From the IMG/VR virus record IMGVR_UViG_3300014073_000001: DNA of 64,000 nucleotides; one strand, 5' to 3'. The notes beneath the pieces are model-generated. The model searched no databases. It had not been told where the DNA came from and saw nothing but the letters and a program-made list of their open reading frames with translations. This stretch comes from an uncultured virus (IMG/VR IMGVR_UViG_3300014073_000001) (taxonomy: Duplodnaviria; Heunggongvirae; Uroviricota; Caudoviricetes). The position numbers and the translations under genes were made by a program. This document shows, in pieces, positions 41,271 to 57,673 of the stretch; within the stretch, counting starts at the first letter, position 1, and each line of letters opens with the position of its first letter.

Positions 41271-41546
41271 TTAGCGAGGAGCTATGGCACTTTCCAATAC
41301 TGTTATCCTTCCTTGTAATGTTGACACTTTATCTTCAAGCATCGATACTTTATCTTGTAAGTTCGAAACTTGTCCAGATAAGACTGTATTGCTGGTTTCC
41401 AATATAGACACTTTCCCGGTTAGAATTGCGTTGGACGTTTTAAGTATAGAAACTTCACTGTTAAGGGTTGTGCTGGATGTAGTCAATGTAACCAACTGAT
41501 TGCTGATACTTTTTATAAGAGCTGATAATGATTTATCCATATCCAT
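41271..41546 (-). CDS. Short heptad-repeat coiled-coil protein
   Basis: Nine near-perfect heptads (LNSEVSI LKTSNAI LTGKVSI LETSNTV LSGQVSN LQDKVSM LEDKVST LQGRITV LE); SD AAGGAG. Confidence 0.7.
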   Translation of the reverse strand: MDMDKSLSALIKSISNQLVTLTTSSTTLNSEVSILKTSNAILTGKVSILETSNTVLSGQVSNLQDKVSMLEDKVSTLQGRITVLESAIAPR

Positions 41547-41602: not shown

Positions 41603-42490
41603 TTAACAATGGTCAAGACAATTCTTACATACATCGGGTATGATGTCTCGAGATTGTTCAGATCTCATTTTCATGCCTTTGCCGAAGCGTAGCAATTCCA
41701 AGACCGGCTTGTCTTTCAGATTGCCAATAATATGCTCTTTACTGTGCCCATAGCAACAGGTGCGTACATTAAGATCGACATCTACATAAAACCCTTTGAA
41801 TAGAGACCAGCACGGGACTGGTGATACTTTGTTTTCATACTCCCCTATTACGCCGGCCACTCCGGTTGCATATGTTCCGCCCTGTGATTGAAGTGGCAGC
41901 CAGTAATGATCACCAAACTCTAATTGGGATAAAGCTTCTTTGTAGTCGTCTTTGTCGGAATCAAGTATGGTTGATACAGTTAATGTTTTACCAAGCCGCT
42001 GACATTCTTCGTTCAATACTTTAATGTTCTTAATGATTATGCCATATATCCATTCACTAGCCGCTGTTTTAGATACGAAGTCATTCTGATCTTTGTAATT
42101 CCACGAAACTTTTAGGCTGTCAATATACGGGATAGCATTTAATATGTTGCTTTGGGTCGTTCCATTAGTAGTAAGGTAAGTAAAGAACCCGCTTTCTTTC
42201 AGTTCTTTATAGTATTTGGCCAGTTGGGGGTGCGTGCCCGACTCGCCCATATAGAACAAGCCTACTTCTTTGATAGTTCCTATCATCTTCAGCGCGTATA
42301 GAACGATAGCAAAATCATTATCATTCATAAACTTCTGACGTTCGCCATACTCTGCCATTTGCTTGTTATAGCAAAAGGCGCAGTTTAGTGTACAGATTCC
42401 AGTCAGTTCTATCTTCGCTGTTGTGTATGGAGTACCAGACAATAGATTGTCGTTCCTTGAAATTGCATTGACTCGATCTTTCACTGACAT
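41603..42490 (-). CDS. Radical SAM/SPASM(Twitch)-domain protein
   Basis: CTLNCAFC, MGES, TTNG; C-terminal PCW...VRTCC...IGN...CKNC. Confidence 0.9.
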   Translation of the reverse strand: MSVKDRVNAISRNDNLLSGTPYTTAKIELTGICTLNCAFCYNKQMAEYGERQKFMNDNDFAIVLYALKMIGTIKEVGLFYMGESGTHPQLAKYYKELKESGFFTYLTTNGTTQSNILNAIPYIDSLKVSWNYKDQNDFVSKTAASEWIYGIIIKNIKVLNEECQRLGKTLTVSTILDSDKDDYKEALSQLEFGDHYWLPLQSQGGTYATGVAGVIGEYENKVSPVPCWSLFKGFYVDVDLNVRTCCYGHSKEHIIGNLKDKPVLELLRFGKGMKMRSEQSRDIIPDVCKNCLDHC

Positions 42491-42502
42491 GTTTGTGCCT
42501 CC

Positions 42503-43312
42503 TCAATACCTGAAAGCTTTTCTGTCAACTCTACAAAAATCTACTTCGGATATCACGAAATGTTTGTGTGGCACCGGCAATTCTTTTGCTTTGACAGTTA
42601 AATAAACAGGATGTTCTGAAACAACTTCATACGGTATATTACCGACTGATACAGCGTTATTGCATAAGCCTTTTGTATTAATTAGCCATTTGCAGGCGGC
42701 CGGCGAAATGTACTGCTCTCTTAAAAGCTGAAAGCGTCGCCTCCATTTGTCAGTAAATAAGCAGTAGCCGAGCCTCAGCCCCGCCCCTATGGTCTTGCTA
42801 AATGAGCCGATAACAACTTTGTTGTCGTTGATATCCTTTACGTTAGCAAGTAGTTGACACTGGGTGTAGGTTTCATCTAAAATTTTAACACCGTCAAAGG
42901 AAATGTTCTCGTGCCTAAATAGATTGTTATAGGTATCTGTCATATATAGAAACTCGGTATCGATGCTTTTGACTTCTGGAGCAAAGATGCCGTCTTTAAA
43001 TTCATAGTTATGAAAGTTATAGGCGATGTCCAACGCTTCGCAATCTATCTGAACCATTTCCCATGTCGGATTCTCTATCGTAAGTTCCTTAACTCGTAAG
43101 GCCAAGAGAGCTATCTTCATAGCATTCTCACAGCCGTTAGTTAGAATGAAGTTGCCGATGGGGATATGAAATAACTTGCTAAAGCTTTCGTATGCTCGGT
43201 ACATATCTGGGTACTGTCTAGCATTAAAGGCAAAGATATTGCTTTCGCCTGGTTCGTTCTTGGTTGATAATGGACCATCTATTGATGGCTTGTAATCTTT
43301 TCTTTCAAACAT
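42503..43312 (-). CDS. PLP-dependent class I/II aminotransferase-fold enzyme (HisC/CobD-like, short)
   Basis: QYP, TNGCE, ILDETY, GSFSKTIGAGLRLGY (PLP lysine motif). Confidence 0.8.
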   Translation of the reverse strand: MFERKDYKPSIDGPLSTKNEPGESNIFAFNARQYPDMYRAYESFSKLFHIPIGNFILTNGCENAMKIALLALRVKELTIENPTWEMVQIDCEALDIAYNFHNYEFKDGIFAPEVKSIDTEFLYMTDTYNNLFRHENISFDGVKILDETYTQCQLLANVKDINDNKVVIGSFSKTIGAGLRLGYCLFTDKWRRRFQLLREQYISPAACKWLINTKGLCNNAVSVGNIPYEVVSEHPVYLTVKAKELPVPHKHFVISEVDFCRVDRKAFRY

Positions 43313-44099
43313 TACTTTTCACCAATTTCGCTAATTTTTTAGGATAAGTACAATGCTGTTGAAGTCTGCATGGTCTGCACTTGCTAACTTTGCTACAGGT
43401 TAAACAGCTGTTAGGCACATACATCTGACTCTGATGTGGACACCCAAGTGCTACGCGGCCGTCAGGATACAATGTCGCTATTCCGGTGCAGTCGTGCTGC
43501 CAGTGATTGAGCTTGTCGACGATCTGATTTTGTATTTCAACATCCCACATTTCATAAATGCGGCATAGCCATTCATCTACCCGCTCATAGAATTCTTGAT
43601 CCTTGTCATCAGTTATCAGATGTTCGAACAGTATGGAATCAATCGCTTTATACTCGCGAGCCCACAAGCGGATCATACTCATGAATTCATTGATATTAGA
43701 CTTAATCAAGCCATCGGTCAGGGTGATTAGCACTAGGCATGTTATATCGTTTGCTTCTAACCTCTTAAGGTTAGCAAGCCATGTGTTGTATTGGTTGCCA
43801 ACGAATCGATCGTCATTCCAAGACGTGGCGACATATAAGTCTTTATACTCTGCTATTAACTCATCATTTAGTATTATAAGGTTCGTAGTTATACTCTCTA
43901 CCTTCTCAGTAGCTAGGGCTTTCATCAGCCTGTCAGGAAAGAGTGTCGGCTCTCCGCCGAATAAGGTAACATGCCCGTCAAAGCCGCGTAGCTGCCGGAG
44001 GAATGCTTCCTCGTTATAGTTATCTGCCGTGTCTTTGATATTGCAATGTGGACAGGACTGATTACAGAGTTTCGTAGGTATAGCATATAGAATTCTCAT
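43305..44099 (-). CDS. Radical SAM protein with Cys-rich C-terminus
   Basis: CNQSCPHC, LFGGEP, TTNL; GCP...CLTC...C..C...C. Confidence 0.9.
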   Translation of the reverse strand: MRILYAIPTKLCNQSCPHCNIKDTADNYNEEAFLRQLRGFDGHVTLFGGEPTLFPDRLMKALATEKVESITTNLIILNDELIAEYKDLYVATSWNDDRFVGNQYNTWLANLKRLEANDITCLVLITLTDGLIKSNINEFMSMIRLWAREYKAIDSILFEHLITDDKDQEFYERVDEWLCRIYEMWDVEIQNQIVDKLNHWQHDCTGIATLYPDGRVALGCPHQSQMYVPNSCLTCSKVSKCRPCRLQQHCTYPKKLAKLVKSNV

Positions 44100-45073
44100 A
44101 ATTTCCATCCCGCCTTTACGATGCGCTCCTTTAGCTTTAGCATTTCACAGCAGTATTCAGGCGTCTCCTTGGCTTGCTCACGATTGGTGCTGCAGCCATT
44201 ACAGATATTAAATAACTCACAGTAGGTGCACTGAACGTTGATAGCCTCATTGTATGTAACAGGCTGTGGTTTAGCTTCCGGCCGTATGGTCTCTACCGGG
44301 ATCTCCATACCGTAATCCATATTGATTTTATCTTCACAATCACTGTAGTGTAGGTTGTTATCAGTGTCGACGTACGCGCAGCGGATCGTAGATTGACACA
44401 TAAGGTTGGAATTAGTCGGACAACAGCCTGTGCCTCTCTCAGCGCAATTGATTTCGTATTCATCTACGCCCTGGTCAATGATGTTGAGCCACATCTCAAA
44501 CATCTTATAACGTGGATAATAGATGCCCTGTCTGCCCATCTTCAGCGCATTGTTTAGCCGGCAGCGAGTACCGAGTTTCTTAGCGAGTTGTACATGCTCA
44601 TAGGCAGTATGCTCGTTCTCCTCGCTTATGACAGCAATGAAGGGCGGAACATACCCTACACGCTTCTTAAAGAGCGCAATAACCTTTCTGAAGGCCTCTT
44701 CATTGTATACAGTATCTTTATCCCATAGGCGGGTATTTCCGTAGTTAAATGAGGTGCAGACATTAACCCGGGGGTTAGTAAAGAGTGGCGTCCATTTATC
44801 TGGATAGAGATAAAAATCTTTGAGGTTAGTAGTAAATGATAGCTGGCAATCGCATAATGTCAGGAGCTCTTCATAGTACGACGGATTACACATGAGTGGT
44901 TCACCGCCGGTGATAATGAGTCCTTCGGGTCGGAGTATGCCTATTAACTTTTTAAGCTTATCCGAGACATTATTCGGATGCTGAATGTCAAGTGTTGATG
45001 CGGCGCAGAAAGTGCAGTTGAAGTTACATACGGAAGTAGGTTTTATAATGAGCTCCACTCTATTCATCTCCAA
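44096..45073 (-). CDS. Radical SAM/SPASM protein
   Basis: IIKPTSVCNFNCTFC, TGGEPL, FTTNL; CTYCELFNICNGC SPASM motif. Confidence 0.92.
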   Translation of the reverse strand: MEMNRVELIIKPTSVCNFNCTFCAASTLDIQHPNNVSDKLKKLIGILRPEGLIITGGEPLMCNPSYYEELLTLCDCQLSFTTNLKDFYLYPDKWTPLFTNPRVNVCTSFNYGNTRLWDKDTVYNEEAFRKVIALFKKRVGYVPPFIAVISEENEHTAYEHVQLAKKLGTRCRLNNALKMGRQGIYYPRYKMFEMWLNIIDQGVDEYEINCAERGTGCCPTNSNLMCQSTIRCAYVDTDNNLHYSDCEDKINMDYGMEIPVETIRPEAKPQPVTYNEAINVQCTYCELFNICNGCSTNREQAKETPEYCCEMLKLKERIVKAGWKL

Positions 45074-45452
45074 TCAGAAATTCTTGTTTGAAATACTGTA
45101 GGGTCTTTTTGATCGATTCGTACTGCTCAATGTCACCGATCTCCTCAAGAATCTTGTCGTAGACAGCAGGGTTAATGCTATAAGGGACAAAATACATATC
45201 GTCGCTCAATAGGTTTGCATCATCGAGAACCTTAAAAAAATCCTCTTTAAAATACTTCTGTAGATAATGAGCATAGACTATAGCAACAAAATAAGATTTA
45301 GCAGGGTATACCAGTTGCGACTCCGTCTTAAAGAACTTTACGACCATATCGAACAGCTCTCGATTGTTGCAGATGACGTACTCAATTTGTAGGTTTACGT
45401 CATCGAAGTCGTGCATTAAGTATGCTAACTTACGCCTTTCTTGCCACGTCAT
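45060..45452 (-). CDS. Hypothetical protein of the rSAM cluster
   Basis: 130 aa, YPAKSYFVAIVYA motif, overlaps both rSAM neighbours. Confidence 0.65.
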   Translation of the reverse strand: MTWQERRKLAYLMHDFDDVNLQIEYVICNNRELFDMVVKFFKTESQLVYPAKSYFVAIVYAHYLQKYFKEDFFKVLDDANLLSDDMYFVPYSINPAVYDKILEEIGDIEQYESIKKTLQYFKQEFLIGDE

Positions 45453-46440
45453 CTTTAATCCTCCGGATTAGGTTTTTCGGGGCGGGACATATGCCGTTTT
45501 GCCATGAGAGCTGGTGGCAGTCCCCGTTACAGATAGTATATAGGTCACAGTAGTAGCAACCGATCTCGCGCGTCTGCTCATTCTTTATTAGCTGATTGCG
45601 TGCGCAGCTTTCACACATGACGGCAGGTTCACTATCGACATCTGTATAGAATTGCGCGATAGCCGAGTTAGGGCAGCCGCCAATGGTACCGTTAGCATTA
45701 AGGGTGACTACTTCCTGCATGCATTGACGTTTGCGACAGCCTTCGAATGTACCAGTGCTTGCAATCGCTAAGCTTTCGAACATGCCTACGCGAAGTTTCT
45801 CGTTATTCTCGTAGAAGTCTAGGAGCCAGGCGTCTTGCTTTGTATAATCAGGGATCAGTGATTTATCACATGTGGTGTTGTCGGTCAATCGTTCGAAGTC
45901 GATGTAGTCAATCTCCAGTCCAACAAAATAGTCATGCAGTTCTTTAGGGAATACGTTTTTGACCAGCGGAGCGGTCAAGCATATGATTACTTTTACTTCT
46001 ACGTCATTATCTATTAGCGTTTTAACATTGTGTTCCCATAATCCCAGCATTTCTGCATTAGGAAAGCGGATATCATAATCCCATGAAGTCTTAATGAAGG
46101 GCTCATGCATTCCATAAAAATCGAAAAAGTTTTTCTTGATGAAAGCTAAACGCTCATCGGTTAGTTCAAAACATAAGTTGCTAGTAGCGTCAAAGGTTGC
46201 CGCTGGAAATGCATCTACTACCTTCTGCATCTTCTCGGTCGGGCAGAGGAATGGTTCACCTCCATGGAATGAGAACAGCACTTCCTTCTCCTCGATACCA
46301 AACTTAGCAAGATATTTCTTCACCCATCCGATGGTCTTGTCTTCATTGAAGAGAGCGATAAGCTTTCTATTGTCACCTACGTAGCAGTGCTTGCACTTTA
46401 GCTGACAGGCCTCAGTTGTTTTGATGTACACCTTTTTCAT
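45430..46440 (-). CDS. Radical SAM/SPASM protein
   Basis: YIKTTEACQLKCKHC, FHGGEP, ATSNL; GGCPN...CYYCDLYTICNGDC...CPAP. Confidence 0.92.
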   Translation of the reverse strand: MKKVYIKTTEACQLKCKHCYVGDNRKLIALFNEDKTIGWVKKYLAKFGIEEKEVLFSFHGGEPFLCPTEKMQKVVDAFPAATFDATSNLCFELTDERLAFIKKNFFDFYGMHEPFIKTSWDYDIRFPNAEMLGLWEHNVKTLIDNDVEVKVIICLTAPLVKNVFPKELHDYFVGLEIDYIDFERLTDNTTCDKSLIPDYTKQDAWLLDFYENNEKLRVGMFESLAIASTGTFEGCRKRQCMQEVVTLNANGTIGGCPNSAIAQFYTDVDSEPAVMCESCARNQLIKNEQTREIGCYYCDLYTICNGDCHQLSWQNGICPAPKNLIRRIKDDVARKA

Positions 46441-47335
46441 TTCTATACCACCTTATTAAAGATTTCATGCCGCAGCATTCGTCGCCATCTCTCCATGGTT
46501 TAATGTGTTCAGCATAGCAGTGCCCATAGAATTCACATGTCCGACATAGCTCTTCGTACTCCTGCGCTTCTCTGTTGCATTCCCTCGCCCAATCTTCTAA
46601 ACTATCAAAGCTCTGAAAATATTCAAGCCCGTTGTCATAATGAATACAACAGTATTGGTTGTACGGATTTATAAACAGCACCGAATCCATAGAAGGGTTG
46701 TACATATTGTATATTACCTCTTCAATCTCGATTATGTTGTTTATCAGGAAATTATATTTGCTAGAATTATATTCGATGATAATAGCTTTAAGAAAGCTAC
46801 TATACTCTTCATTCGTAATCGCATAGTTCACCCGAGCATGTACGGCAGGAGAGTATTGGAGAAATCCTACGTTTAAATTAAACAAGCTCAGGTGACGCAA
46901 TATCTCTCTCGGTGGCTTTTTAAGAAGTGATGGCGTCACGACCTGAATCAGTGACAGGCTTTTATATTCATTGATTAACAGTCTAAACTCGGTCAGAGCG
47001 TTGCAGTCTCTCTCTTCATTAATAGAAGTTGACAGATCAATACCCTGTGTTTTGAAATAGTCGTTATAGACTTTATTGGAATAATTTGTAACGATCGATA
47101 CCGACGCGTATGTTCTGCAAATATTGTAGAGCTCCATAATATAGCTCAACGGCAGCAAGGTGATCTCGCCGCCGTACAGGTTGATAATGTCTATTATATT
47201 ATGGCGCGCAATCTCTGCTAGTTGCTCTTTTAGCTTCGGTAAATTTAGTATTTGCGAATCGCTTTTGAGGTCGCCCAGATAGCAATACTCACAATCGTAG
47301 TTACATGTATAGTTTGTCATGATATGAAGAATCAT
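46412..47335 (-). CDS. Radical SAM protein with Cys-rich C-terminus
   Basis: CNYDCEYCYLG, LYGGEI, VTN; CRTCEFYGHCYAEH...CCG. Confidence 0.92.
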   Translation of the reverse strand: MILHIMTNYTCNYDCEYCYLGDLKSDSQILNLPKLKEQLAEIARHNIIDIINLYGGEITLLPLSYIMELYNICRTYASVSIVTNYSNKVYNDYFKTQGIDLSTSINEERDCNALTEFRLLINEYKSLSLIQVVTPSLLKKPPREILRHLSLFNLNVGFLQYSPAVHARVNYAITNEEYSSFLKAIIIEYNSSKYNFLINNIIEIEEVIYNMYNPSMDSVLFINPYNQYCCIHYDNGLEYFQSFDSLEDWARECNREAQEYEELCRTCEFYGHCYAEHIKPWRDGDECCGMKSLIRWYRNEKGVHQNN

Positions 47336-48270
47336 ATAAAGACCTCCCCTGACCGGTGACAAATGGTACCTTCCAGTTTGTTGTCTAAATGGCAGCGCCT
47401 TAAGTTGATCATAATATCACTATTCCATATTTCTTTAAAAGAGTTCTTTCTTAAATCTCCTACGATGAAGTCATCAATAAATGCACTACAGCAGCTTGCT
47501 ACTTTCATATCACTTGTTATGTAGCTATTATTAAAAATACGCGGGCAAGGCACGACAGGCAGTCGGTTACAGTAATCACTACTGAAGTGCCCATCCTTTA
47601 TAAGCCCGCCCTGATTGTTAATATTAAAGAAATAGTGTTCACTCACATATGGTTTAACGTGTGCATCAACAAATGATTGCATTTTGATCGGTACGTTTTC
47701 TACATCGTATACGGTAGATGAGGCATACAAACTAATCGATGAATCAGATCGATATGCATACTCTGCAGTCTTTTTAATATTATCTATTACAATATCAAAT
47801 GCGTCGACGCCGGTCTCCTTAAGAAATTCGTCTCGATCCGCATGATTAATGGACCATTTTAAACTGTCTAGGCCTGAATTTACAATGTCTCTCATCAGCT
47901 GTTTTTTTAACAGTACGCCGTTAGTCGTGAGAAATAGATAAGGTACCCCCAAGCCCTTTGCAACCTTAATCATCTCTACAAGGTTGGGATTCATAGTTGA
48001 TTCACCTAGAAATAGCAGCCCGACCTCTTTAACACGGAGGTCAACCAATTGCTGTATAATATTTTGAAAGTCTTCCAACGACATGAATCCTTTTCGTTCA
48101 CTATGCTGATTGTAGCAGAAGGAGCATTTAAGGTTGCACATAGAAGCCAGTTCTACCTTAACGGACTTCGGCGTAGGACAAATGAGAGAGTAATTCTCGA
48201 TTTTTTCTATCGCTTTAATTCTTTCTCTGATCCCGTCAGCTTGGTCCCGATCACGATTGATGCTTTTCAT
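47332..48270 (-). CDS. Radical SAM/SPASM(Twitch)-domain protein
   Basis: VELASMCNLKCSFC, LGES, TTNG; PCP...ASCC...VGDL...EIWNS...IC; paralogous in style to 41603..42490. Confidence 0.9.
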   Translation of the reverse strand: MKSINRDRDQADGIRERIKAIEKIENYSLICPTPKSVKVELASMCNLKCSFCYNQHSERKGFMSLEDFQNIIQQLVDLRVKEVGLLFLGESTMNPNLVEMIKVAKGLGVPYLFLTTNGVLLKKQLMRDIVNSGLDSLKWSINHADRDEFLKETGVDAFDIVIDNIKKTAEYAYRSDSSISLYASSTVYDVENVPIKMQSFVDAHVKPYVSEHYFFNINNQGGLIKDGHFSSDYCNRLPVVPCPRIFNNSYITSDMKVASCCSAFIDDFIVGDLRKNSFKEIWNSDIMINLRRCHLDNKLEGTICHRSGEVFI

Positions 48271-49081
48271 AGTAATCACTCCAGAAGTTTTTGAATTCCT
48301 CACCATATAAATTACCAGGAGAATCACACTTACTACACAGTTTGCATAATTCACGCCGATCACCAATCAAATGCATACGGTCTTCTTTAAGCCTATTAAT
48401 CCAGATCTCATAAATGTCATCTGTAAAGATATTGCCTAGTATGTGTTCGCGGCTCCAGTCGCTACAGCATTGTAGTATATCACCGTTAATGTCGATCGTT
48501 ATTTTCATGAAGCAAATATTGCAACAAGACGACGGGATATGCACGTCCGACTTTCCGACATTGCCAGCTCGGTTATTCCAGAACGTGTTGTTCTCTTTAT
48601 ACTGGGTTTTGAACTGTAGAGGCGACTTCGTATTTAAGTCCTTAATCTTCAGTTCGGCAGACTCATCGTATAATGATACATCGATATTATCGACTTCAAG
48701 ATCGACAAGGCGGCCATGAAAGTCACCATTGGTTGTTAACAGCACCCGGGCCTTATCGCATTCCTTCAATTTATAAATAAGCTCTTGCAGATAAGGATGA
48801 AGCGCTGGCTCTCCAAAGCCCGACAGAGAGAATGTACCCTGGAATTTATTCCTTAGCTGTTCCACTAATTTGGCGATCACCTTTATGTCCATAAATTGTG
48901 ACAGGTAAGATGGAGAAGTGTAGCCATTGCCACGAGGACAAAAGCTACACTTACGATTACATGCTTCGCTTATATTGATGATGATCGTATGGAGACTGGT
49001 GAAAACATCGAGGTCATGCGTCTTTAAGTATTTACCGATTGCATCTGACTTTGTCTGAATATTGGTAGCCCTCAAATTCAT
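48251..49081 (-). CDS. Radical SAM/SPASM(Twitch)-domain protein
   Basis: CNRKCSFCP, SGFGEP, TTNG, NNRAGN; C...F...ING...CC.DW...LGNI...EIW...CSKC. Confidence 0.9.
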   Translation of the reverse strand: MNLRATNIQTKSDAIGKYLKTHDLDVFTSLHTIIINISEACNRKCSFCPRGNGYTSPSYLSQFMDIKVIAKLVEQLRNKFQGTFSLSGFGEPALHPYLQELIYKLKECDKARVLLTTNGDFHGRLVDLEVDNIDVSLYDESAELKIKDLNTKSPLQFKTQYKENNTFWNNRAGNVGKSDVHIPSSCCNICFMKITIDINGDILQCCSDWSREHILGNIFTDDIYEIWINRLKEDRMHLIGDRRELCKLCSKCDSPGNLYGEEFKNFWSDYYEKHQS

Positions 49082-49089
49082 TTCTCCCC

Positions 49090-49977
49090 CTAGAATGAAA
49101 AATATGGTGCACAAATTTCGTTAATCAGAGTTTTGTCTGGATTTACTTTATTAATTAGCTTTTCGAAGTAGTTGATATTCTCACTGGTAACATAGAGGCA
49201 AGCTGGGATATACGGCAATTGTAAATATAGAGCAGACAGAATACGTGCGTGCGAATCATTAGTCGATACAATTGTGCCATTGTCGATTTCCAGATACAGA
49301 GGTTTTTGAATTCCGTTCTTAGCGATATCTGTAATTAGCGCATCCATCTCATCTTTGTCGGAGCCGGTAAACCAGAAGTCTTTGCTGATAACATCATAGC
49401 AGTAATTGTAGTCAGCCAGCTGGACCGTGGAATAATACTCATACGGTAAGTTTACATTAAGAATATAGATCGGTGCTTTACAGATATCTTTGTTGTCGAC
49501 AATAGTATAACTTGTAGAATCAAACATACTGTATTTACTGCTATTTGGAACCTTACAGAAATAACTTGGCATATTTGATACCGGCTGAAGCTTAGTTCTT
49601 AAAAATTCCGGAATTGATTCGGCGTACTCAATACCATATACATTCATGACAATATCGGTATCATTCATTTTAATATGCTTCAAGTAGTCTTCACTGGCCA
49701 TTGCTAGGCCGAATGAACCGAAGTATTCGAGCAGGCCATAAGCGTCAGTGATTCTAGAATAGTCCTGGCTTTTACCAATCTTCGGGATCTTCTTGAACTG
49801 AAGCTGCAGGTGCGCTGGCAAAAGTTTGATAATCTCTTTTCTATCAGCTACATCAATCGTTACTGTCTGCTTTGAGCGCAGATGCTGTTGCAGATCCCCG
49901 TAACCAGTTACTTCATAATCTTTTATGATAAGCTGAGGTTTTTTGTTCAGCCTATCCATTACTTCCATGCTCTCCAT
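49090..49977 (-). CDS. Hypothetical protein with C-terminal ParB/Srx-like segment
   Basis: LITDIAKNGIQKPL...NDSHARILSALYLQLPYIP resembles the ParB/sulfiredoxin core (G...P...DG.HR..A). Confidence 0.5.
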   Translation of the reverse strand: MESMEVMDRLNKKPQLIIKDYEVTGYGDLQQHLRSKQTVTIDVADRKEIIKLLPAHLQLQFKKIPKIGKSQDYSRITDAYGLLEYFGSFGLAMASEDYLKHIKMNDTDIVMNVYGIEYAESIPEFLRTKLQPVSNMPSYFCKVPNSSKYSMFDSTSYTIVDNKDICKAPIYILNVNLPYEYYSTVQLADYNYCYDVISKDFWFTGSDKDEMDALITDIAKNGIQKPLYLEIDNGTIVSTNDSHARILSALYLQLPYIPACLYVTSENINYFEKLINKVNPDKTLINEICAPYFSF

Positions 49978-49988
49978 ACTGAAGTCTC

Positions 49989-50741
49989 CTATGCTTTAAA
50001 TTTCTCTATACACTTCTCAAGGTGAAAGTAGTTGGTCCTTACTCGCTCTAGTGGGAATGGAGCGTAGAGATAATAAATTGCATCCGGGTTTGAATAGTCG
50101 ATCGTATTAATGTTGACTTCGCTATCGAGCGGTATATTAAATAAAATCAGTTCCCGCCGATACATGTTATAAGCATCGTAATAATACTTTAGACGTCTTA
50201 CGTTGTTTCGAATAATGTGGTTCACATAGTCTTCGTATCTGGACCGTGTTCCATTTTTACGATGCACCAGGCAGTCTTCTACGCACCACGAGTATTCAGG
50301 AATAACAGTTATGTCGAATGCTATGATAGGATCGACTAGTTTCATATCGCCGATGCTAAGTTTTTGCGTTTCAATATGCTTTTTATGGTTGAATATACTC
50401 AAATCTACACTATAATCACCCAGCAATTTGCTGTCGGTTAACTGCTGAAACTTGATATAAGAATCAAACCATTCGTCGATAGTCCAGTCAAAAAGCTTGC
50501 TAAATGCCGTACACTTACTATACCAGTCGTTAATAAATGTATACATCTCATTGCTTGCTAAGCAGATGTTGAGATGATTATTTTTGAGATTAGACATACG
50601 CTCATGAGTAATAACTCTAGCGTTAGGGAAATATGTTTTGATATGGTTGTTATCACAAAACGGTAACGATGTTACTAAGTAGTTCCGATCTTCGCCAATC
50701 TCAAAGTTAAAGATGATATGACTCTTATAGAAAAACAACAT
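49989..50741 (-). CDS. Hypothetical protein of the rSAM cluster
   Basis: 250-aa ORF, coupled; no recognised motif. Confidence 0.6.
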   Translation of the reverse strand: MLFFYKSHIIFNFEIGEDRNYLVTSLPFCDNNHIKTYFPNARVITHERMSNLKNNHLNICLASNEMYTFINDWYSKCTAFSKLFDWTIDEWFDSYIKFQQLTDSKLLGDYSVDLSIFNHKKHIETQKLSIGDMKLVDPIIAFDITVIPEYSWCVEDCLVHRKNGTRSRYEDYVNHIIRNNVRRLKYYYDAYNMYRRELILFNIPLDSEVNINTIDYSNPDAIYYLYAPFPLERVRTNYFHLEKCIEKFKA

Positions 50742-50997
50742 CGATCAGCTCAACTCCATACGACTCTTTCCTGGTAAGACTTTGGGCAAAAGACGTTTCT
50801 TCGTTGGCCCCTCTCATAGCTACACCGTAGAATGGGCAAGTACATACGAACTCACCCTCTCCCACCGGGCCTATACAAAATACCTTATGTATACCCGTGT
50901 TTGTTAGACCATTGTTATAGACATAGCAGTCTTTAATGTAGTAGTCATTTGTCAGCCTCGAACCACAATAAAGGAAATTATTGTCCAAAATGCTCAA
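50725..50997 (-). CDS. Small Cys-containing hypothetical protein
   Basis: 90 aa with five Cys including CTCPFYG; overlaps both neighbours. Confidence 0.55.
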   Translation of the reverse strand: MSILDNNFLYCGSRLTNDYYIKDCYVYNNGLTNTGIHKVFCIGPVGEGEFVCTCPFYGVAMRGANEETSFAQSLTRKESYGVELIDVVFL

Positions 50998-51694
50998 AAC
51001 TTTCTACTTCCTGAGCGAGACTTTGCCATTCCTCTTTGGATGTAGCGCTGAGTCCGTACAGCACATCCATGAAGGGCAGTCTCTGGATTACAGTAAAGAG
51101 TTCGTTATTTTCTACAGTAAAGATCTGAGTATAAAACAAGGGCTCGATATTGACAGGAATACCATACAAAAACAGAAATTCATCATGTTCGATTAACTTG
51201 TATAGGTTGCACTTGATTGGGTTCTTATCAGCCTTTTTAAATTCCGACATATCATAAACTTCATCGTTGAGGAAGAAGCGATACATAGCGTACAAAGGCA
51301 AAGAAATAATTAACTGATATACTTCTGTCAGGAAGTCCAAATTCTCATCCTTGAATCTCTTAATTTCTTCATCAGACAGGATAGAATATTTATCGGTACT
51401 AATACCTAAACAGCTGTTTAAGATCTTCACCCAAGTAGATGAAAACTCTTTGTTGCTGACACTTAAGTCTTCAGTCAAATATAACATCAGGTACTCCGCT
51501 TTATCTTCGTAAGAGCAGTTACTGAAGTCTAAGGTGACGCTAAAGCCTGTATTCTTAAGAAACACCAGACTCGTCTTCTTCTGCAGCTCAGCAATGATAC
51601 TTATAAAATTCAGGTCAGACATATCTACAACTGCTCCATTTGTTTGGATCAGTTCCATCTCTTCGATTTTATATGGGAGTGATGTCTTTATCAT
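50978..51694 (-). CDS. Hypothetical protein of the rSAM cluster
   Basis: 238-aa acidic helical ORF coupled to the first rSAM gene. Confidence 0.6.
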   Translation of the reverse strand: MIKTSLPYKIEEMELIQTNGAVVDMSDLNFISIIAELQKKTSLVFLKNTGFSVTLDFSNCSYEDKAEYLMLYLTEDLSVSNKEFSSTWVKILNSCLGISTDKYSILSDEEIKRFKDENLDFLTEVYQLIISLPLYAMYRFFLNDEVYDMSEFKKADKNPIKCNLYKLIEHDEFLFLYGIPVNIEPLFYTQIFTVENNELFTVIQRLPFMDVLYGLSATSKEEWQSLAQEVESFEHFGQ

Positions 51695-52829
51695 GTATCT
51701 TGCTCCATTCTAAATACGTATTTACAAAGTGCCGATTCTCATTGATATAATTGAAAGTTTGGCTGAGCGGACACTGCGTAGTTTTATACCCCTCGAATAC
51801 GATTGCTACCCAGCACATCATCGGGCAGTATTGGTAATGCTCACATGTCAAGCAGCCACGCTTTAAGAGCCCTAATGAGTTCTTGATCTCTGTAACGTTA
51901 TCTTCTATCACGTTCTTGTGATATTCGCCATAAAACATTTCGGCTGGTAGAGATGATGCACGCTTGGAACAGTCTTTGATACATTCTCCGTTGTGGAACT
52001 GACTTGCATATTTGCAGTCGCAATATCTGCCCATGAACGGGCGAAGCTCTTTAAGGGAGCATTTTATGAAATTCCCAACAGCAAGCACGTTGAAGTGACT
52101 ATTATCGATACACCACTTGAAAAAACTAAAATACTCCTCATCGGTAGGTACGTGTTTTTCCCATCCCGGGTTTGCAGTGTAATAGTTGATATCCACTGTA
52201 ATATCTTTCGGGATCAGGTTGAATGCTCGGTCGCCTTTTATATACGCCTTAATGGTATTCTTTGTTAAGGTAATTGAGATATATTGTGTAATCTCTTTGA
52301 AGTGGCAAAGCGTCTTCAGCCATATTTCTTTTTGGCTTTCACAAGAGAAGCGATCCACTGGATCATAACTGAATGCGATCTTGCCGTTTGTTCTCACCAG
52401 AAGCTTTTCAACTCGCTCGTATTTGGTGAATACACCATTGGAAAGCCAAGTCGTTTCTACTTTAATTCCAGGAATCTCTCGGCCAGCAATCTCAACAAAT
52501 TTATCATAAAATTCGACATATATATCAAAGAGGGAATCTGGTAAAGCATCGAAGAACAGCTCCCCACCCCATAAGCGGAGTAAAATCGTATCTACTCCGT
52601 ATTCTTTGACCTCATCCTTAATGCCGTCTATGATTAACTTAGGCATCGCCAGGATCTTGCTGGTGTCGATATCATTGCACTCATGAGATTCAAAGCAGAA
52701 GCTGCAGCTCAAGTTGCATCGTTCGAATAGCGGAGCTGCAATTTCAAAGTAGCCAGGATTTTTATAGAAATTGATCTTCGGCAGTGTGGAAGGCATTTCA
52801 ACTCTGGAAATATCGATAAATTTTTCCAC
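51669..52829 (-). CDS. Radical SAM/SPASM protein
   Basis: FERCNLSCSFC, LWGGE, WLSNG; CLTCEHYQYCPMMC...C; start overlaps the stop of the CHxxCHxxCH gene. Confidence 0.92.
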   Translation of the reverse strand: MEKFIDISRVEMPSTLPKINFYKNPGYFEIAAPLFERCNLSCSFCFESHECNDIDTSKILAMPKLIIDGIKDEVKEYGVDTILLRLWGGELFFDALPDSLFDIYVEFYDKFVEIAGREIPGIKVETTWLSNGVFTKYERVEKLLVRTNGKIAFSYDPVDRFSCESQKEIWLKTLCHFKEITQYISITLTKNTIKAYIKGDRAFNLIPKDITVDINYYTANPGWEKHVPTDEEYFSFFKWCIDNSHFNVLAVGNFIKCSLKELRPFMGRYCDCKYASQFHNGECIKDCSKRASSLPAEMFYGEYHKNVIEDNVTEIKNSLGLLKRGCLTCEHYQYCPMMCWVAIVFEGYKTTQCPLSQTFNYINENRHFVNTYLEWSKIHDKDITPI

Positions 52830-53506
52830 TATCTACGACCTCGACTTCCGTGACAATTATTATGACAATTACGATGGCAAGTATATAACTTATATGTAAT
52901 TGCATTTACCGATGCTGAAGTCCATGCCGCTTTCAAGCGATTGAAGAAGGCTACGATATTGGCTGCTGACGCTGCCTTTCCTGCCTGAATATCTGATCCG
53001 TCAACATTGATAGCTTGCAGGGGGATATTTACGTCACGTTCCCATCCAGCCACTGCCGAACTGCCTATTGCTGAATATACCGGCAAAGCAGCGAGTGAAG
53101 GCTTGAATATTGCCTTACCACTTTTGGTTGCAACTAAGGAAAACGAGGCATTGTTTTGATGATACCAATAAGAATTAAAGTTACGAACTCTGGATAGTCC
53201 TGTTACTATGCTAGTCAGTGCGGTGTACACAGTTGCTCCAGTCACTCTTTCACCTGCTGTTCCTATGTTTGCAATCGGTTCAGCGTAAGCATCGAGATCT
53301 TGAAGAGGGACTGCCGCAGGATCAGCAAACGCGGCGACGTTGTCATTTCCTTGGTAACTAGAATTGCGATATACTGTGCCGCTAAAATATGGCACGTTCG
53401 TACTATGAAAAGTGTTTGCCAAAATAGTCGCTACAACATTAGCTGAAAAACTAATAGCCATATCACCTGGTTTAATTTTGTCGCCAGCAATTAAGCTCAT
53501 CACCAT
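52829..53506 (-). CDS. Fibre-like protein with C-terminal CHRNCHNNCHGSRGRR; putative rSAM substrate
   Basis: Ala/Ser/Asn-rich; three G-x2-[IVA]-x-[APG] repeats; all Cys are confined to the C-terminal triple CH motif; first gene of the rSAM cluster. Confidence 0.65.
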   Translation of the reverse strand: MVMSLIAGDKIKPGDMAISFSANVVATILANTFHSTNVPYFSGTVYRNSSYQGNDNVAAFADPAAVPLQDLDAYAEPIANIGTAGERVTGATVYTALTSIVTGLSRVRNFNSYWYHQNNASFSLVATKSGKAIFKPSLAALPVYSAIGSSAVAGWERDVNIPLQAINVDGSDIQAGKAASAANIVAFFNRLKAAWTSASVNAITYKLYTCHRNCHNNCHGSRGRR

Positions 53507-53516: not shown

Positions 53517-54446
53517 TTACTTTATTTTGATTTTCAGCTTTCTTTTGCAGATCAGATCATCTGCCTCAACAAGAAATCCGATTATGCTCTCTGTATTATC
53601 GACAGCCGAGTTGTATAAGCGACCGCACCCAGGCATAACACTAGGAACGACAGGCATACCTTTTTGGGCATTACCTATGAAGTTCACATGGACACGCCCC
53701 GCCAAGCCTACTGGGATATATTTCAAGAGATTGTGCTCAACAAAATCGGAATCAGCAGGAGGAATTTCACCGCCTATAATATGAGAGAACTCACCTGAGT
53801 GGACACCAGCAATGCATGTAGCTCCCTCTAATGCCTTTACATACTCCTCTTTGTCTGAATCAAGATTTAGCATTATGATGTCACCAGGTTCTGTTGCTTC
53901 TCCCCGAGGGAAGAATTCAGCGTAGTCATTCCATACCGCACCGTAAACTGTGTCGGCAGTTATAGAGGTAGCTTTGATCTTAGTTACGGTTAAAGTGTCG
54001 GTTGCTGGTGTATAGTTAATAGCACCACAACGCATTTCTTGCGGACCCGTGCCGCCGACCAGTGCAAGTTTCATAACAACAGTATCGGGGACAGCCCCCA
54101 TAGTCGTTATGTCACTCTTGCTTGAAAGAACATTCGATACCGATACATTGAATAAGCCCGTACTAGCTGCAGATGTCACCGAAGAGCTTGCGCTGCCAGA
54201 TAGTTGTATTTTCATTCGATTAACAGCAGCTTCATTTGCCTGGGATGCCTGTGTAATCAACGGGATATATCTATCATCGTGAAAATGAGTCTTGTTGTCG
54301 TCGCCAATGATTTCAAGATTCTTTCTGGCCTCTTGTCTGTCCAAAACATCGCTCAGATTTAAGTCACGACGTAATCTATTCCTGATAGCATCCACGTAAA
54401 AGGTGGACCATGAACCGGCCTCCTTCTGCCATTTAAGTAGTGCCAT
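53517..54446 (-). CDS. Tail fibre/appendage protein with intramolecular-chaperone (peptidase G2-like) C-terminus
   Basis: NLSDV...ARKNL, HFHDDRY; VYGAVWNDYAE...EPGD...GVHS...PVGLAGRV.V. Confidence 0.7.
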   Translation of the reverse strand: MALLKWQKEAGSWSTFYVDAIRNRLRRDLNLSDVLDRQEARKNLEIIGDDNKTHFHDDRYIPLITQASQANEAAVNRMKIQLSGSASSSVTSAASTGLFNVSVSNVLSSKSDITTMGAVPDTVVMKLALVGGTGPQEMRCGAINYTPATDTLTVTKIKATSITADTVYGAVWNDYAEFFPRGEATEPGDIIMLNLDSDKEEYVKALEGATCIAGVHSGEFSHIIGGEIPPADSDFVEHNLLKYIPVGLAGRVHVNFIGNAQKGMPVVPSVMPGCGRLYNSAVDNTESIIGFLVEADDLICKRKLKIKIK

Positions 54447-54460
54447 ATTAAAACTCTCCT

Positions 54461-55849
54461 TTAACCGTAGATTATTTTGAATGTCAAACTCTCGGTCGTA
54501 TCGTTATAAATGGTAATACCAGTGTCGGTATAAGCAACAGTAGCAACCGCTTCGCTGTTAATGTACTTATTGAGTGTTCTGCTTCCAGCCGTCGTATCAA
54601 GAACCAAGATTTTCACTTTTTGAATATATGGATCTTCAATTGCTTGCCAGGCAGAACTGTTTGCCGGGATTACCACGTTAATAACCGTCGGTTCAACAGG
54701 AGGGGTATATACGTTATACAATGTTCCTTCATTGTTGAATAAGATTTCACCGGTGTTTACATCGAGGAAAAACTTTCCAGCATATTCCCATTCAGTAAGA
54801 AAGTCGGTTGTCGACAAATAGTCAGTAATTGTGGAGTCTGGCTCTGGAACAGAACCGTCAGCAGTATCGTAGACATAGGCAACATTGTTTGTTATATCGA
54901 AGATATTAGCAACACCATCAGACAGAGCAGCATCAATATCGGCAGCTTCGCGAGCGATCACTCCGCACCATACGATATTGCTTCCTGCTAGGCCGCCGTA
55001 AGCATCAGCTATCACGCCAACCTGCCCAAGCGTTCCTGTGATTCTGCTTGCGCCCACTCTCAGTGCTTCGACCGAAACCTCAAGATTATTAATCTTGTTG
55101 AGTTGAGCAACCACTCCCGGAGCCAATAACGTTTCAGGAAGTTTGTTGTCGAGCGTAATAAGTCCGTCATTAACCTTATCAGTTAGATCGGCAAGATCGG
55201 ATTCAACGGCTTCAATATCTTGCTTGTTTAGAGTAGTGACTGATTCGACAGCATTGATATGTGTCTGCATAGCGGTCATAGCCTCTGCTACACCGGATAC
55301 GTCACCTGAGATTGCTGATATCAAAGCGATACTGTTCTCTACATTCAACATGTCATTTTCGAGATTCAGTATCTTCAACTCAGTAGTGGAGAGCCGATTG
55401 TCGATACTGGTGAACTTGGTATCGGTAGCATTCAGCCTGGCTTGCAAAGAACCGTCCAGATCTGCAACAGAGATGCTATCGCTTTTTTTACGATAGTTAT
55501 CTAGGTCTGCCACAGTTGCAAACGATCGGCCGCCAGACGATGTTAGCCCTAGTGATGTTAGCAAGTTATTATCAAGCATGCTTTGGGTGACTTTATCGCT
55601 GACTTTATGAAGGTAGTTTGCTAATTGAGTTTTATCAGCCTTATTAGAGATGAGGCTATTGATCTGCCCAACGATTATAGTGTCATCGTATCCTCCTGAA
55701 CCGCCGCTTGCACCGCCATTACGAACAATGTCCTGCAACTCGTTAGACAGGTCTTCGTATTTAATTAGTCCTGCCTTAACAAAGGTATCAAACAGGGCTA
55801 ATAGTTCCTGATCTAGATCTCTACGTTTAATTTTGCCTGCTTGCGCCAT
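54461..55849 (-). CDS. Coiled-coil tail fibre-like protein
   Basis: GGGYDDT, NKADK, long heptad region, C-terminal YINSEAVATVAY beta domain. Confidence 0.6.
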   Translation of the reverse strand: MAQAGKIKRRDLDQELLALFDTFVKAGLIKYEDLSNELQDIVRNGGASGGSGGYDDTIIVGQINSLISNKADKTQLANYLHKVSDKVTQSMLDNNLLTSLGLTSSGGRSFATVADLDNYRKKSDSISVADLDGSLQARLNATDTKFTSIDNRLSTTELKILNLENDMLNVENSIALISAISGDVSGVAEAMTAMQTHINAVESVTTLNKQDIEAVESDLADLTDKVNDGLITLDNKLPETLLAPGVVAQLNKINNLEVSVEALRVGASRITGTLGQVGVIADAYGGLAGSNIVWCGVIAREAADIDAALSDGVANIFDITNNVAYVYDTADGSVPEPDSTITDYLSTTDFLTEWEYAGKFFLDVNTGEILFNNEGTLYNVYTPPVEPTVINVVIPANSSAWQAIEDPYIQKVKILVLDTTAGSRTLNKYINSEAVATVAYTDTGITIYNDTTESLTFKIIYG

Positions 55850-55865
55850 AGTTTACAGCTCCTCC

Positions 55866-56960
55866 TTATAAAAATACTGCGCCGAAGTCATTCCACTTAT
55901 TATTGCTGTAATACCTGATTGTCATCTCACCAGCTTTAATACAGAACCAGACGGTCTTGTTATTCTCTGGAGATGCAGGTGGTGCCACGCCAATGTGAAA
56001 GTTCGACAGATCCTGCATGCCGTGAGTGTGAGCCGGCAACGTAGAAGCAGGAATTTTACCATCTGACTGAACAACCAGAAGCTGGTTGGGGCCAGTTCCT
56101 GCATGATGTCCGTCAGTCGTATCTGCATCACCGCCGCTTGCAGGCAAGCTCGTAGGGAAGTCAAAAATTTCTGTTTTATTATGGACGTGTCCTTGATAGC
56201 TAATTTTATCTTTTATTTCGTATCCAGCAATGCTTGTGGGCTTGCCGGTAACTCGATCCCAGGAAATTGTAGTATTTACTTCGACGTTTTCACCTAATGC
56301 ATCATTGTCTGCCAAGGAGCCGTCAAAGTCGATCCATAGATCACCGATTTCGCTAGCCTCTGGTGTTTCTGTACTCATAAAAACGCGAGGATATGGATTG
56401 CCAATTCTAAAGATTCGGATATACTTAGCCGTAATTTCGTGGCCTACTTCCAAGGCGTCAGAAATAGCGAAGCGCGTTTCGTTCAATTCCCTTAACCCGC
56501 CGGAAGCCGGAGTTCTCTCTAAGACATCGTCGATCGTAGCACTGATGTGATTTCTATGTCTGATGTACGAGGCTTTTTCTAACTCGAAAACAAATTCGTT
56601 GTGTTCGGTTATAGGCATGTGTCTGGTTTGTCCATCAGAATTTGTGTACGAAAACTCATTCGAAACGTACTTACCATCTGACCCTATGTTTGGCACACTT
56701 GTGACGGTAAATACCTCATGGACAATCATGCTATCTTTGATGATACATAAAGTTCCGTCATTCTTTAAACCGGATGGCAGCCAATCTGTTTCTCCCTCTA
56801 GCTTAACCATCATGAGGCCAGTTTGAGGATTGACTTTTATCGTACCATCGGGGATAAATTCCCACTTTAATTTACTTGCGTCTTCTTCAGTTATTAAAAG
56901 CGCTCGGCCGTCTTGAATTATGTTTTCACTGACCTTTCTGACGCCTCTTGCCATGGACAT
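55866..56960 (-). CDS. Tail fibre-like protein
   Basis: GDLWID, ISWDRVTGKP, GHVH, DFPTSLPA.GGDADT.DG.H, AHTH fibre motifs; SD GGAGG before MSMARG. Confidence 0.65.
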   Translation of the reverse strand: MSMARGVRKVSENIIQDGRALLITEEDASKLKWEFIPDGTIKVNPQTGLMMVKLEGETDWLPSGLKNDGTLCIIKDSMIVHEVFTVTSVPNIGSDGKYVSNEFSYTNSDGQTRHMPITEHNEFVFELEKASYIRHRNHISATIDDVLERTPASGGLRELNETRFAISDALEVGHEITAKYIRIFRIGNPYPRVFMSTETPEASEIGDLWIDFDGSLADNDALGENVEVNTTISWDRVTGKPTSIAGYEIKDKISYQGHVHNKTEIFDFPTSLPASGGDADTTDGHHAGTGPNQLLVVQSDGKIPASTLPAHTHGMQDLSNFHIGVAPPASPENNKTVWFCIKAGEMTIRYYSNNKWNDFGAVFL

Positions 56961-57085
56961 AAAGATACCTCCTTTGTCAAATCCATTCATTTGATATATT
57001 ACTTTTGGGATCAGCTATATACAGTCCATAAAAGGCTAAAAAAGAAACTTTGCCCCCGGATAAGCAAAGTTTAAGAAGTGAGTAT

Positions 57086-57670: not shown

Positions 57671-57673
57671 TTG

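Follow-up and report, generated by a model that had tools for sequence, protein, structure and literature searches.

The window analyzed here, a 64,000-nucleotide stretch of DNA from an uncultured virus of the class Caudoviricetes (IMG/VR record IMGVR_UViG_3300014073_000001), carries on its minus strand, at positions 41603 to 53506, a cassette of 15 open reading frames (ORFs) that encode eight radical S-adenosylmethionine (rSAM) enzymes, one pyridoxal phosphate (PLP)-fold enzyme, five proteins without an assigned family, and a 225-aa lead protein. We found this cassette to be one version of a hitherto undescribed module that is widespread in phages, marked by a Cys-His tail at the C terminus of the lead protein and far more general than this one window. 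Our preferred reading, to which we give a probability of about 0.6, is that the enzymes modify this tail, before assembly, in a particle protein encoded beside the tail fibers; it is the role of the tail as substrate that we infer here.

An initial annotation of this DNA, made from the letters alone, had described 15 tightly packed minus-strand genes, and their coordinates were reproduced (Table 1), with overlaps at 12 of the 14 junctions and gaps of 11 and 12 nt at the remaining two. The overlap that it reported between the lead gene and the first rSAM gene (rS1) is also there, the TAG stop and the GTG start having one base in common. In agreement with another of its remarks, searches of the 15 proteins in Pfam, PHROGs, NCBIfam, and PADLOC turned up no transporter, peptidase, or immunity family; PADLOC returned only generic N-terminal matches to viperin-type rSAM proteins. 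The five proteins without an assigned family (u238, u90, u250, u295, and u130) matched nothing in Pfam or NCBIfam, and u250 and u295 found no family in PHROGs either. When the cassette was compared by megablast with 50,697 phage records, no match was obtained, and a scan for promoters and terminators was no richer than that of shuffled sequences (47 versus 44.5 promoters and 12 versus 11.5 terminators).

The only cysteines of the lead protein, C210, C214, and C218, lie within its last 16 residues (CHRNCHNNCHGSRGRR), confined, as initially annotated, to a terminal (CHxx)3 motif with the His triplets HRN, HNN, and HGS. An AlphaFold2 (AF2) model built from a 25-sequence alignment shows a globular alpha/beta domain (pLDDT 80.8, pTM 0.77), with residues 216 to 225 disordered at a pLDDT below 50. 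The protein had been called fiber-like, a description that did not survive this model, which is globular with a disordered tail and has no fiber fold. The disorder speaks in favor of our reading, as accessibility of the tail. Comparison with PDB folds gave a best Foldseek E value of 2.0 and a best VIA-align (wide) Z score of 4.1, while BFVD returned only the protein's own family and ESM Atlas nothing usable. No Pfam or NCBIfam domain was found in it, hence no peptidoglycan-binding domain, and its sole PHROG match was phrog_35144, a family of unknown function that covers the tail, with no match to a tail-fiber family.

Relatives of the lead protein were collected in several ways. A word-based search gave 14, and tblastn identified one in a cultured phage, Agrobacterium phage Atu_ph07, where a 296-aa protein ends in CHSSCHASCHNSRSRR. 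A scan combining tail patterns with tblastn retrieved 16 relatives out of 37 pattern matches in viral contigs, 5 out of 377 in metagenome contigs, and a single one out of 58 in 185,579 species genomes, located on a contig of a metagenome-assembled genome. Because the search patterns used parts of the tail, conservation of the motif in the loci found by pattern is partly by construction. As a less biased test of the motif, we searched 1.84 billion representatives with a whole-protein profile and obtained a family of 860 members (50%-identity clusters) at E <= 1e-3, 602 at <= 1e-10, and 93 at <= 1e-30. Conservation of the motif in other genomes, which the initial annotation had proposed to check, was evident in this set, as 131 of the 150 best family representatives end exactly in CHxxCHxxCHxxRxRR. 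The tail consensus is C-H-[SA]-S-C-H-S-[SN]-C-H-[GS]-S-R-G-R-R, and serine occupies tail positions 4, 8, and 12 in 113, 90, and 111 of the 131 canonical tails. The proteins are about 175 to 300 aa long (median, 196.5 aa), and among the 150 best representatives, 91 have no cysteine outside the last 20 residues. Since the tail is invariant while the rest of the protein is only 18 to 45% identical to that of the window, its conservation goes beyond chance. The family is present in lineages of large phages that are not related to one another, namely, phiKZ-like phages (RSL2), Rak2-like phages (Atu_ph07), uncultured phage contigs from metagenomes, and the phage studied here, and in our search of the literature we found no paper describing it or its tail. 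Two loci of the window's own clade, L022 (9890-10555) and L023 (10004-10597), have tail variants, ...CHSNCHSNWGDARGRR, where the third Cys-His is replaced, and ...CHSSCHSSCHNDHRGRR; L022 also has three rS1 paralogues.

All ORFs of the first 18 related loci (L001 to L018) were compared by BLAST with the window proteins. In 17 of the 18, the gene directly upstream of the lead gene is an rS5 homologue, and in the other (L013) the contig ends there. The association of the Cys-His motif with rSAM genes outside this window, another point that the initial annotation had raised, was therefore found at every locus with sequence on that side. Homologues of rS6 were present in 17, of rS1 in 16, of rS4 in 14, and of the 130-aa protein in 11 of the 18 loci. 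Homologues of rS5 (32 to 36% identity) also occur in 15 phage records corresponding to jumbo phages of Ralstonia, Burkholderia, Agrobacterium, Sinorhizobium, and Pseudomonas, which span phiKZ-like and Rak2-like lineages.

The tails and the enzymes vary together. A hidden Markov model (HMM) was made for each gene family, and the hits were tabulated over all loci, counting those with at least 9 kb downstream. In a subfamily with tails ending in CHGS[IL], without RxRR, represented by nine distinct contigs, rS5, rS6, and a u238-like gene are present in all nine, and rS1, rS4, u130, and a cupin gene in none. Among the 22 RxRR-tailed loci with the same downstream reach, on the other hand, rS1 was found in 22, rS6 in 20, rS4 in 19, and the cupin in 15. 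The loss of four cassette genes in the clade that lacks RxRR ties the enzymes to the sequence of the tail. Because this clade keeps, of the cassette families compared, just rS5, the lead protein, u238, and rS6, these four form a minimal core, and the distribution of rS1, rS4, u130, and the cupin suggests that they may serve the Ser-Arg-Gly-Arg-Arg end. The minimal loci without RxRR encode a 630-aa B12-binding rSAM protein (13732-15624 in L009) and, a little downstream (17035-17661 in L009), a protein with a Peptidase_S74 "chaperone of endosialidase" domain, typical of self-cleaving fibers. In Ralstonia phage RSL2 (L002, 18036-19185), two cassette ORFs look dihydrofolate reductase-like by eye.

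The initial annotation placed the cassette directly downstream of tail-fiber genes. In the window this amounts to one weak match, as only the 309-aa ORF among those upstream resembles a tail-fiber PHROG (phrog_4465, E 8.7e-4). The neighboring ORFs of 462, 374, 966, and 662 aa had no match in the family, PHROG, tblastn, and PDB-sequence searches run on them (tblastn in phages for the 966- and 374-aa ORFs, PDB sequences for the 462- and 374-aa ORFs). The placement is upheld by synteny in the relatives, where the genes flanking the cassette match tail-fiber, tail, or virion-structural PHROGs in 10 of the 11 loci tested (L001, L002, L003, L005, L009, L014, L016, L017, L018, and L019, but not L011). 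In addition, an ORF resembling the 309-aa ORF precedes the lead gene in L021, and in a 453-aa family member a Gly-rich N terminus (phrog_863, tail fiber assembly, 1.7e-6) is fused to the lead domain. Comparable arrangements have been published. The account of Aeromonas phage 332-Vera reports eight rSAM genes within a structural cluster with five tail-fiber genes, an arrangement that it calls highly unusual and leaves unexplained where it is described (PMC12390700). In the Ralstonia jumbo phage phiRP31, a different rSAM cluster (ORF68 to ORF76, with a 537-aa rSAM and AnSME-like, MoaA-like, and MgoB-like proteins; PMC5468394, Supplementary Table S2B) directly follows two YomR-like fiber genes; the virion table of that paper contains none of ORF68 to ORF73, and phiRP31 was not screened for a lead-family member.

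The published proteome of Atu_ph07 virions includes a homologue, which bears on the question of particle association raised in the initial annotation. Supplementary Table S5 of that study gives gp170 as a hypothetical protein of 31.89 kDa (8 unique peptides; coverage, 35.16%), seen in bands 1 to 9 and most abundant in band 1, the top gel band, while other 30- to 32-kDa proteins of the table peak in bands 7 and 8 (PMC6102473). We identified gp170 as the lead homologue AUZ94952.1 by counting coding sequences (CDS) and by its computed mass of 31.89 kDa. The count was anchored at CDS141 (450 bp), CDS143 (771 bp), CDS155 (285 bp), and CDS180 (13,350 bp), all with matching lengths, and the mapping also fits by mass for gp176 (66.07 kDa) and gp177 (21.66 kDa). 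The neighboring enzymes (CDS 164, 165, 168, 171, and 172) are absent from Supplementary Table S5 (PMC6102473).

The lead gene could also be read as that of a precursor with an unusually long leader, from which a modified peptide or a derived cofactor would be released, for example, against competitors or host functions. The precursor layout is shared by rSAM clusters for ribosomally synthesized peptides that carry posttranslational modifications (RiPPs) and for peptide-derived cofactors such as pyrroloquinoline quinone (PQQ) and mycofactocin, and the enzymes of the cassette have weak NCBIfam matches to the peptide maturases DynA, DarE, PapB, and AmcB. We consider such a release very unlikely, given a cassette of 15 genes with no protease, transporter, or immunity gene, a lead protein whose conserved N-terminal domain of about 200 aa is well folded in the AF2 model, a homologue present in the Atu_ph07 particles at 35% coverage (PMC6102473), and a family nearly absent from cellular genomes (the single relative mentioned above). 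RiPP-type chemistry applied to a structural protein, as originally proposed, is the best reading because the motif is kept, the co-occurrence with rSAM genes holds, and a homologue appears in a virion proteome; what has changed is that the lead protein models as globular and that its place on a tail appendage is one that gene order alone would suggest.

The eight rSAM enzymes initially annotated all have the CxxxCxxC motif and all match Pfam Radical_SAM (PF04055) at E <= 0.0052, six of them above the gathering threshold of 29.5 bits. The remaining two, rS1 at 19.7 bits and rS5 at 17.4 bits, fall short of it; against phrog_1802 ("radical SAM") they reach 4.6e-20 and 1.5e-30, respectively. They had been described as having SPASM/Twitch-like tails, which was borne out by Pfam SPASM (PF13186, cut-off 21.5 bits) for rS2, rS3, and rS8 only; the other five have no Pfam SPASM match but do show a Cys-rich C terminus of the form CxxCx5Cx2-3C. 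Two classes can be distinguished. Class A (rS1, rS4, rS5, rS6, and rS7) comprises the enzymes with phrog_1802 matches and the CxxCx5Cx2-3C ending, and class B (rS2, rS3, and rS8) a set of mutual paralogues (rS3 and rS8, 30% identity, E 1e-36; rS2 and rS3, 3e-8). Within class A, rS5 has the complete SPASM set of cysteines, begins its rSAM motif at residue 12, and aligns with the SPASM region of the anaerobic sulfatase-maturating enzyme (AnSME). As single sequences, rS5 and rS6 found nothing in the PDB; family profiles were required, and these match AnSME over the full length, at E 1.3e-13 for rS5 (4k36-4k39) and 5e-9 for rS6. The rS5 profile also matches sactipeptide/ranthipeptide-type maturases (CteB 5WGG, PapB, and SuiB 5V1Q), partially or weakly, and the weak NCBIfam matches of rS5, rS6, and rS4 are to AmcB, YhhB, FxsB, GrrM, and XyeB. 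A profile of u130 retrieved nothing better than E 0.45 among PDB sequences, and its Atlas scores were 0.85 at most. A prediction of the complex of rS5, the lead protein, three 4Fe-4S clusters, and SAM, run without controls, gave an ipSAE of 0.00 in two runs and speaks neither for nor against binding.

The eight rSAM enzymes had been taken as one set, which applies to five of them, members of the conserved module; we saw rS2, rS3, rS8, and the PLP enzyme in the window alone, with no counterpart in 57 related loci (L001 to L057). The assignment of the PLP enzyme itself was confirmed by a match to Aminotran_1_2 (25.2 bits versus a cut-off of 19.7, residues 155 to 207 only) and a visible SFSK motif, with NCBIfam matches to CobD and HisC models far below their cut-offs. 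These four genes could form an addition of their own, modifying DNA bases, nucleotides, or a glycan instead of the lead protein. Besides their restriction to the window, the three rSAM enzymes form a paralogue group of their own, their best NCBIfam matches, all weak, are to cofactor-type rSAMs (tungsten-cofactor maturase and MoaA), and the nearest phage match of rS3 adjoins carbamoyltransferase and glycosyltransferase genes; rSAM and PLP enzymes also take part in phage thymidine hypermodification (PMC8989533). However, the four genes are interleaved with the conserved module on the same strand and with overlapping junctions, and no hydroxymethylase, kinase, or glycosyltransferase lies beside them (Pfam and NCBIfam). 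We regard a separate function of this group as quite unlikely.

Many relatives of the cassette add oxygenases. A JmjC/cupin gene (Pfam) lies directly upstream of rS5 in L003, L005, L006, L011, L014, L015, L017, and L018, and one to five 2-oxoglutarate (2OG)-Fe(II) oxygenases each (Pfam) are found in L003, L006, L011, L014, L015, and L017. The published annotation of phage S13 has the same mix (PMC11898562). No oxygenases were detected by Pfam in the window and its nearest relatives L019, L022, and L023, and L009 and L016 are likewise without them. In place of oxygenases, the window and its near relatives carry rS7 and extra rS1 paralogues. The use of rSAM enzymes in place of oxygen-dependent ones is a familiar pattern in anaerobes. 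More rSAM enzymes and no oxygenases would fit, by analogy, an oxygen-poor host. L011 has two tryptophan-halogenase-like genes (2929-6067 and 6070-8040; phrog_2928, E about 1e-143), which, together with three 2OG oxygenases, lie directly upstream of its cupin, rS5, and lead genes and suggest further tailoring steps.

In the preferred reading, the rSAM/SPASM enzymes, closest to AnSME, most likely act on the disordered tail in the infected cell and probably leave side-chain cross-links, or changes akin to them, on its Cys, His, or Ser residues. Once finished, the protein would be built into the virus particle beside the tail fibers and would give that particle a modified, strongly basic, and possibly metal-binding end. 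As for the division of labor, rS5, rS6, and the 238-aa-type protein would be the minimal set for the Cys-His repeats, and rS1, rS4, and the 130-aa protein would go with the RxRR extension, accompanied by a JmjC/cupin oxygenase in most RxRR loci outside the window's clade.

Several observations weigh against this reading. No modification has been observed for any family member, and the Cys3His3 tail could simply bind metal. Three cysteines and three histidines at i, i+4 spacing are classic metal ligands, and an ordinary unmodified site for Zn, Fe, or an Fe-S cluster on a virion or assembly protein would agree with the lack of a demonstrated modification and with enzymes that exceed no cut-off of a named maturase family; the rSAM enzymes would then act on something else, for example, the adjacent fiber proteins, a sugar, or a small molecule. 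All of them score far under every curated NCBIfam cut-off. The best match, of rS5 to the AnSME model (TIGR03942), reaches 42.5 versus 349.45 bits, in an alignment that is nonetheless full length (residues 8 to 311 against 7 to 327 of 363), and because no enzyme attains a curated family cut-off, the reaction is not inferable from homology. Furthermore, the "CD" of AnSME, an Asp after a Cys of the auxiliary cluster, aligns with the invariant C256-P257-N258 of rS5, that is, with Pro, and this Asp is the proposed catalytic base of AnSME. The 238-aa partner, in which the initial annotation had suggested looking for a fold like the RiPP recognition element (RRE), yielded neither such a fold nor any other recognizable one by Foldseek or VIA (model pLDDT 87; best Foldseek E 0.23, best VIA Z 3.1; no RRE and no enzyme fold among the matches). 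The fiber identity of the neighboring genes is weak within the window, and the covariation of tails and enzymes counts as one evolutionary event because the CHGS[IL] subfamily is one clade. As to the virion proteome, the gel loading buffer as printed contains no reductant (PMC6102473), so that the species in band 1 could be plain disulfide oligomers, which is all that an unmodified metal-site protein would need to migrate there. The Atu_ph07 virions were also only partially purified, and the table includes RecA-like, single-stranded DNA-binding, ribonucleotide-reductase, and terminase proteins (PMC6102473); for this reason the listing of gp170 is not proof of a structural role. A metal site by itself, however, leaves unexplained both why 17 of 18 loci have an rS5 homologue directly upstream of the lead gene and why RxRR is lost together with rS1, rS4, u130, and the cupin in nine of nine contigs, and neither the near-invariant Ser/Asn at position 4 of the repeat nor the Gly-Ser-Arg-Gly-Arg-Arg end are metal ligands. 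We judge it unlikely that metal binding accounts for the module and favor enzymatic modification of the tail.

Several known systems share some of these features. Among solved structures, AnSME (PDB 4K36-4K39) comes closest to rS5 and rS6, with similarity over the full length, an rSAM core, and a SPASM domain with auxiliary clusters. Its target is a Cys or Ser within a protein, and it is devoid of a leader-recognition domain. Apart from the low score and the Pro for Asp replacement, the phage system differs from it in that its putative substrate is not a sulfatase. The sactipeptide/ranthipeptide maturases CteB, PapB, and SuiB are SPASM rSAMs making Cys-based thioether or other cross-links. Maturases of this type have RRE domains, and their substrates are short peptides with a leader, whereas rS5 starts directly with the rSAM motif and matches them only in part or weakly. 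RiPP clusters in general resemble the cassette in that a precursor-type gene adjoins that of a maturase (here, rS5 upstream in 17 of 18 loci and the lead stop/rS1 start overlap in the window) and differ from it by the leader peptidase and/or exporter, neither of which was found among the 15 proteins with the four libraries. In triceptide formation, the rSAM/SPASM three-residue cyclophane synthases HtkB and HaaB, acting on His motifs, join a His ring carbon to the beta-carbon two residues on, a spacing shared by the His-x-Ser/Asn triplets of the phage tail (PMC11499958). The phage enzymes are far below the cut-offs of triceptide synthases (AmcB 425, YhhB 445, and XyeB 450 bits), with best values of 29.4 bits for rS5 and 29.2 bits for rS6, both against AmcB, and the candidate substrate is a protein tail with invariant cysteines, with no leader peptide, protease, or exporter. 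Of the other literature consulted, a preprint on a Thermus "rSAM module" deals with a different module (rSAM and DUF483), and the text of a 2021 comparative paper on jumbo phages does not contain the words "radical," "rSAM," or "SPASM."

The closest system by analogy is the bacterial antiphage system HXS (HxsA/B/C/D; Li et al., Nat Commun 2026), in which two rSAM enzymes, together with a small partner, mature an effector with five basic His-x-Ser repeats, with a change of +8 Da that maps to Ser-His-Arg-Ser-Ser (SHRSS) (PMC13128918). In both cases the protein involved is a whole one of about 200 aa, not a short peptide, with basic-rich tandem repeats, which in the phage tail are three His-x-[Ser/Asn] triplets, and the function of HXS is exerted at the phage-envelope interface (PMC13128918). 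The three Cys-His-x-Ser units and the Arg-rich end give the phage module a strong resemblance of logic to HXS, and the experimentally established rSAM maturation of a whole HxS-repeat protein in that system counts in favor of modification of the tail (PMC13128918). Membership in HXS, however, fails. HXS resides in bacterial chromosomes (PMC13128918), while the present system is phage encoded and, by one proteome, virion associated. The phage tail has an invariant Cys before each His and three repeats at the extreme C terminus followed by RGRR, the lead protein lacks a peptidoglycan-binding domain (Pfam and NCBIfam), and the phage modules have four to eight rSAMs and, in many relatives, oxygenases. 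Nor are the enzymes HxsB or HxsC members: the only HxsC match was that of rS7 (22.2 versus 267.9 bits, residues 12 to 81 only), and rS5 and rS6 have no match to any Hxs family at E <= 0.01 in NCBIfam.

This analogy could be taken one step further, to a phage counterpart of HXS chemistry in which an rSAM-matured, Arg-rich Cys-His-x-Ser tail, on a virion protein located at the fibers, would have its role at the cell envelope while the phage adsorbs or its DNA enters. We put this forward as a speculation of low probability. The tail might then grip envelope polyanions or metal, or it might shield the DNA on its way in from HxsA and similar periplasmic gatekeepers, and the module might exist in an oxygen-using form, with JmjC/2OG oxygenases and four to six rSAMs, and in an all-rSAM form for anaerobic hosts, as in the window.

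Outside the cassette, the window has other phage-like genes (head protease, primase, and helicase), and what few distant matches it has fall in phages of Gram-positive hosts. In the same stretch are a ParA-like partition protein (361-1215), a replication-initiator-like protein (20422-21804), and a tyrosine integrase (26092-27132), from which this phage may have plasmid maintenance or a temperate lifestyle. Just downstream of the cassette (41271-41546), a 91-aa protein is made of near-perfect heptad-like repeats (VSILKTSN / VSILETSN / VSNLQDK) and resembles a coiled-coil stalk. At 57086-57907, between the putative fiber genes and that of a 1014-aa protein, two membrane proteins are encoded, possibly holin-like, one of 194 aa (phrog_1625, "bacteriocin production or immunity," 5e-7) and one of 77 aa.

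Table 1. Genes of the rSAM cassette and the ORFs upstream of it, in window coordinates.
Feature	Position	Strand	Remarks
Lead protein, 225 aa	52829..53506	-	Globular N-domain and disordered C-terminal tail CHRNCHNNCHGSRGRR; putative substrate and virion protein
Tail codons (16), encoding (Cys-His-x-x)3-Ser-Arg-Gly-Arg-Arg	52832..52879	-	Read base by base
rS1, 386-aa rSAM, class A	51669..52829	-	phrog_1802, 4.6e-20; GTG start overlaps lead stop by 1 nt
u238, 238-aa accessory protein, fold unmatched	50978..51694	-	phrog_20767; homologues after lead gene in most loci; minimal core
u90, 90-aa protein	50725..50997	-	Only in the window's near relatives: homologues in L019, L023, and also L020
u250, 250-aa protein	49989..50741	-	Only in the window's near relatives (L019, L023)
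u295, 295-aa protein	49090..49977	-	Weak homologue, L022 only
rS2, 287-aa rSAM/SPASM, class B	48251..49114	-	Pfam Radical_SAM 45.7 bits, SPASM 31.5 bits; window only
rS3, rSAM/SPASM, class B	47332..48366	-	Pfam Radical_SAM 66 bits, SPASM 37.2 bits; window only; listed TTG start probably too far upstream
rS4, 316-aa rSAM, class A	46412..47362	-	Conserved module member
rS5, 336-aa AnSME-like rSAM, full SPASM Cys set	45430..46440	-	Minimal core
u130, 130-aa accessory protein	45060..45452	-	phrog_20737, 2.9e-24
rS6, 325-aa AnSME-like rSAM, class A	44096..45073	-	Minimal core
rS7, 267-aa rSAM, class A	43305..44108	-	Only in the window's near relatives (L022, L023; 43% identity)
PLP-fold protein, 269 aa, short, aminotransferase class I/II-like	42503..43312	-	25.2 bits versus 19.7 cut-off; window only
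rS8, 295-aa rSAM/SPASM, class B	41603..42490	-	Pfam SPASM match; window only
Three upstream ORFs (309, 462, and 374 aa), possible fiber proteins	53517..56990	-	Weak in-window support; phrog_4465 tail fiber, E 8.7e-4, 309-aa ORF only

To our knowledge, covalent maturation of virion proteins is represented mainly by proteolysis and a few self-catalyzed cross-links. If our reading is true, a dedicated multienzyme rSAM pathway acting on a particle protein would be a new layer of phage assembly and host recognition. It would also account for the "highly unusual" accumulations of rSAM, cupin, and 2OG genes listed without comment in several jumbo-phage papers and would provide enzymologists with new SPASM enzymes that have a defined 16-residue substrate. 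Should the relationship to HXS chemistry hold as well, the enzymatic chemistry associated with peptide antibiotics would be a general, previously unseen layer of virion maturation.

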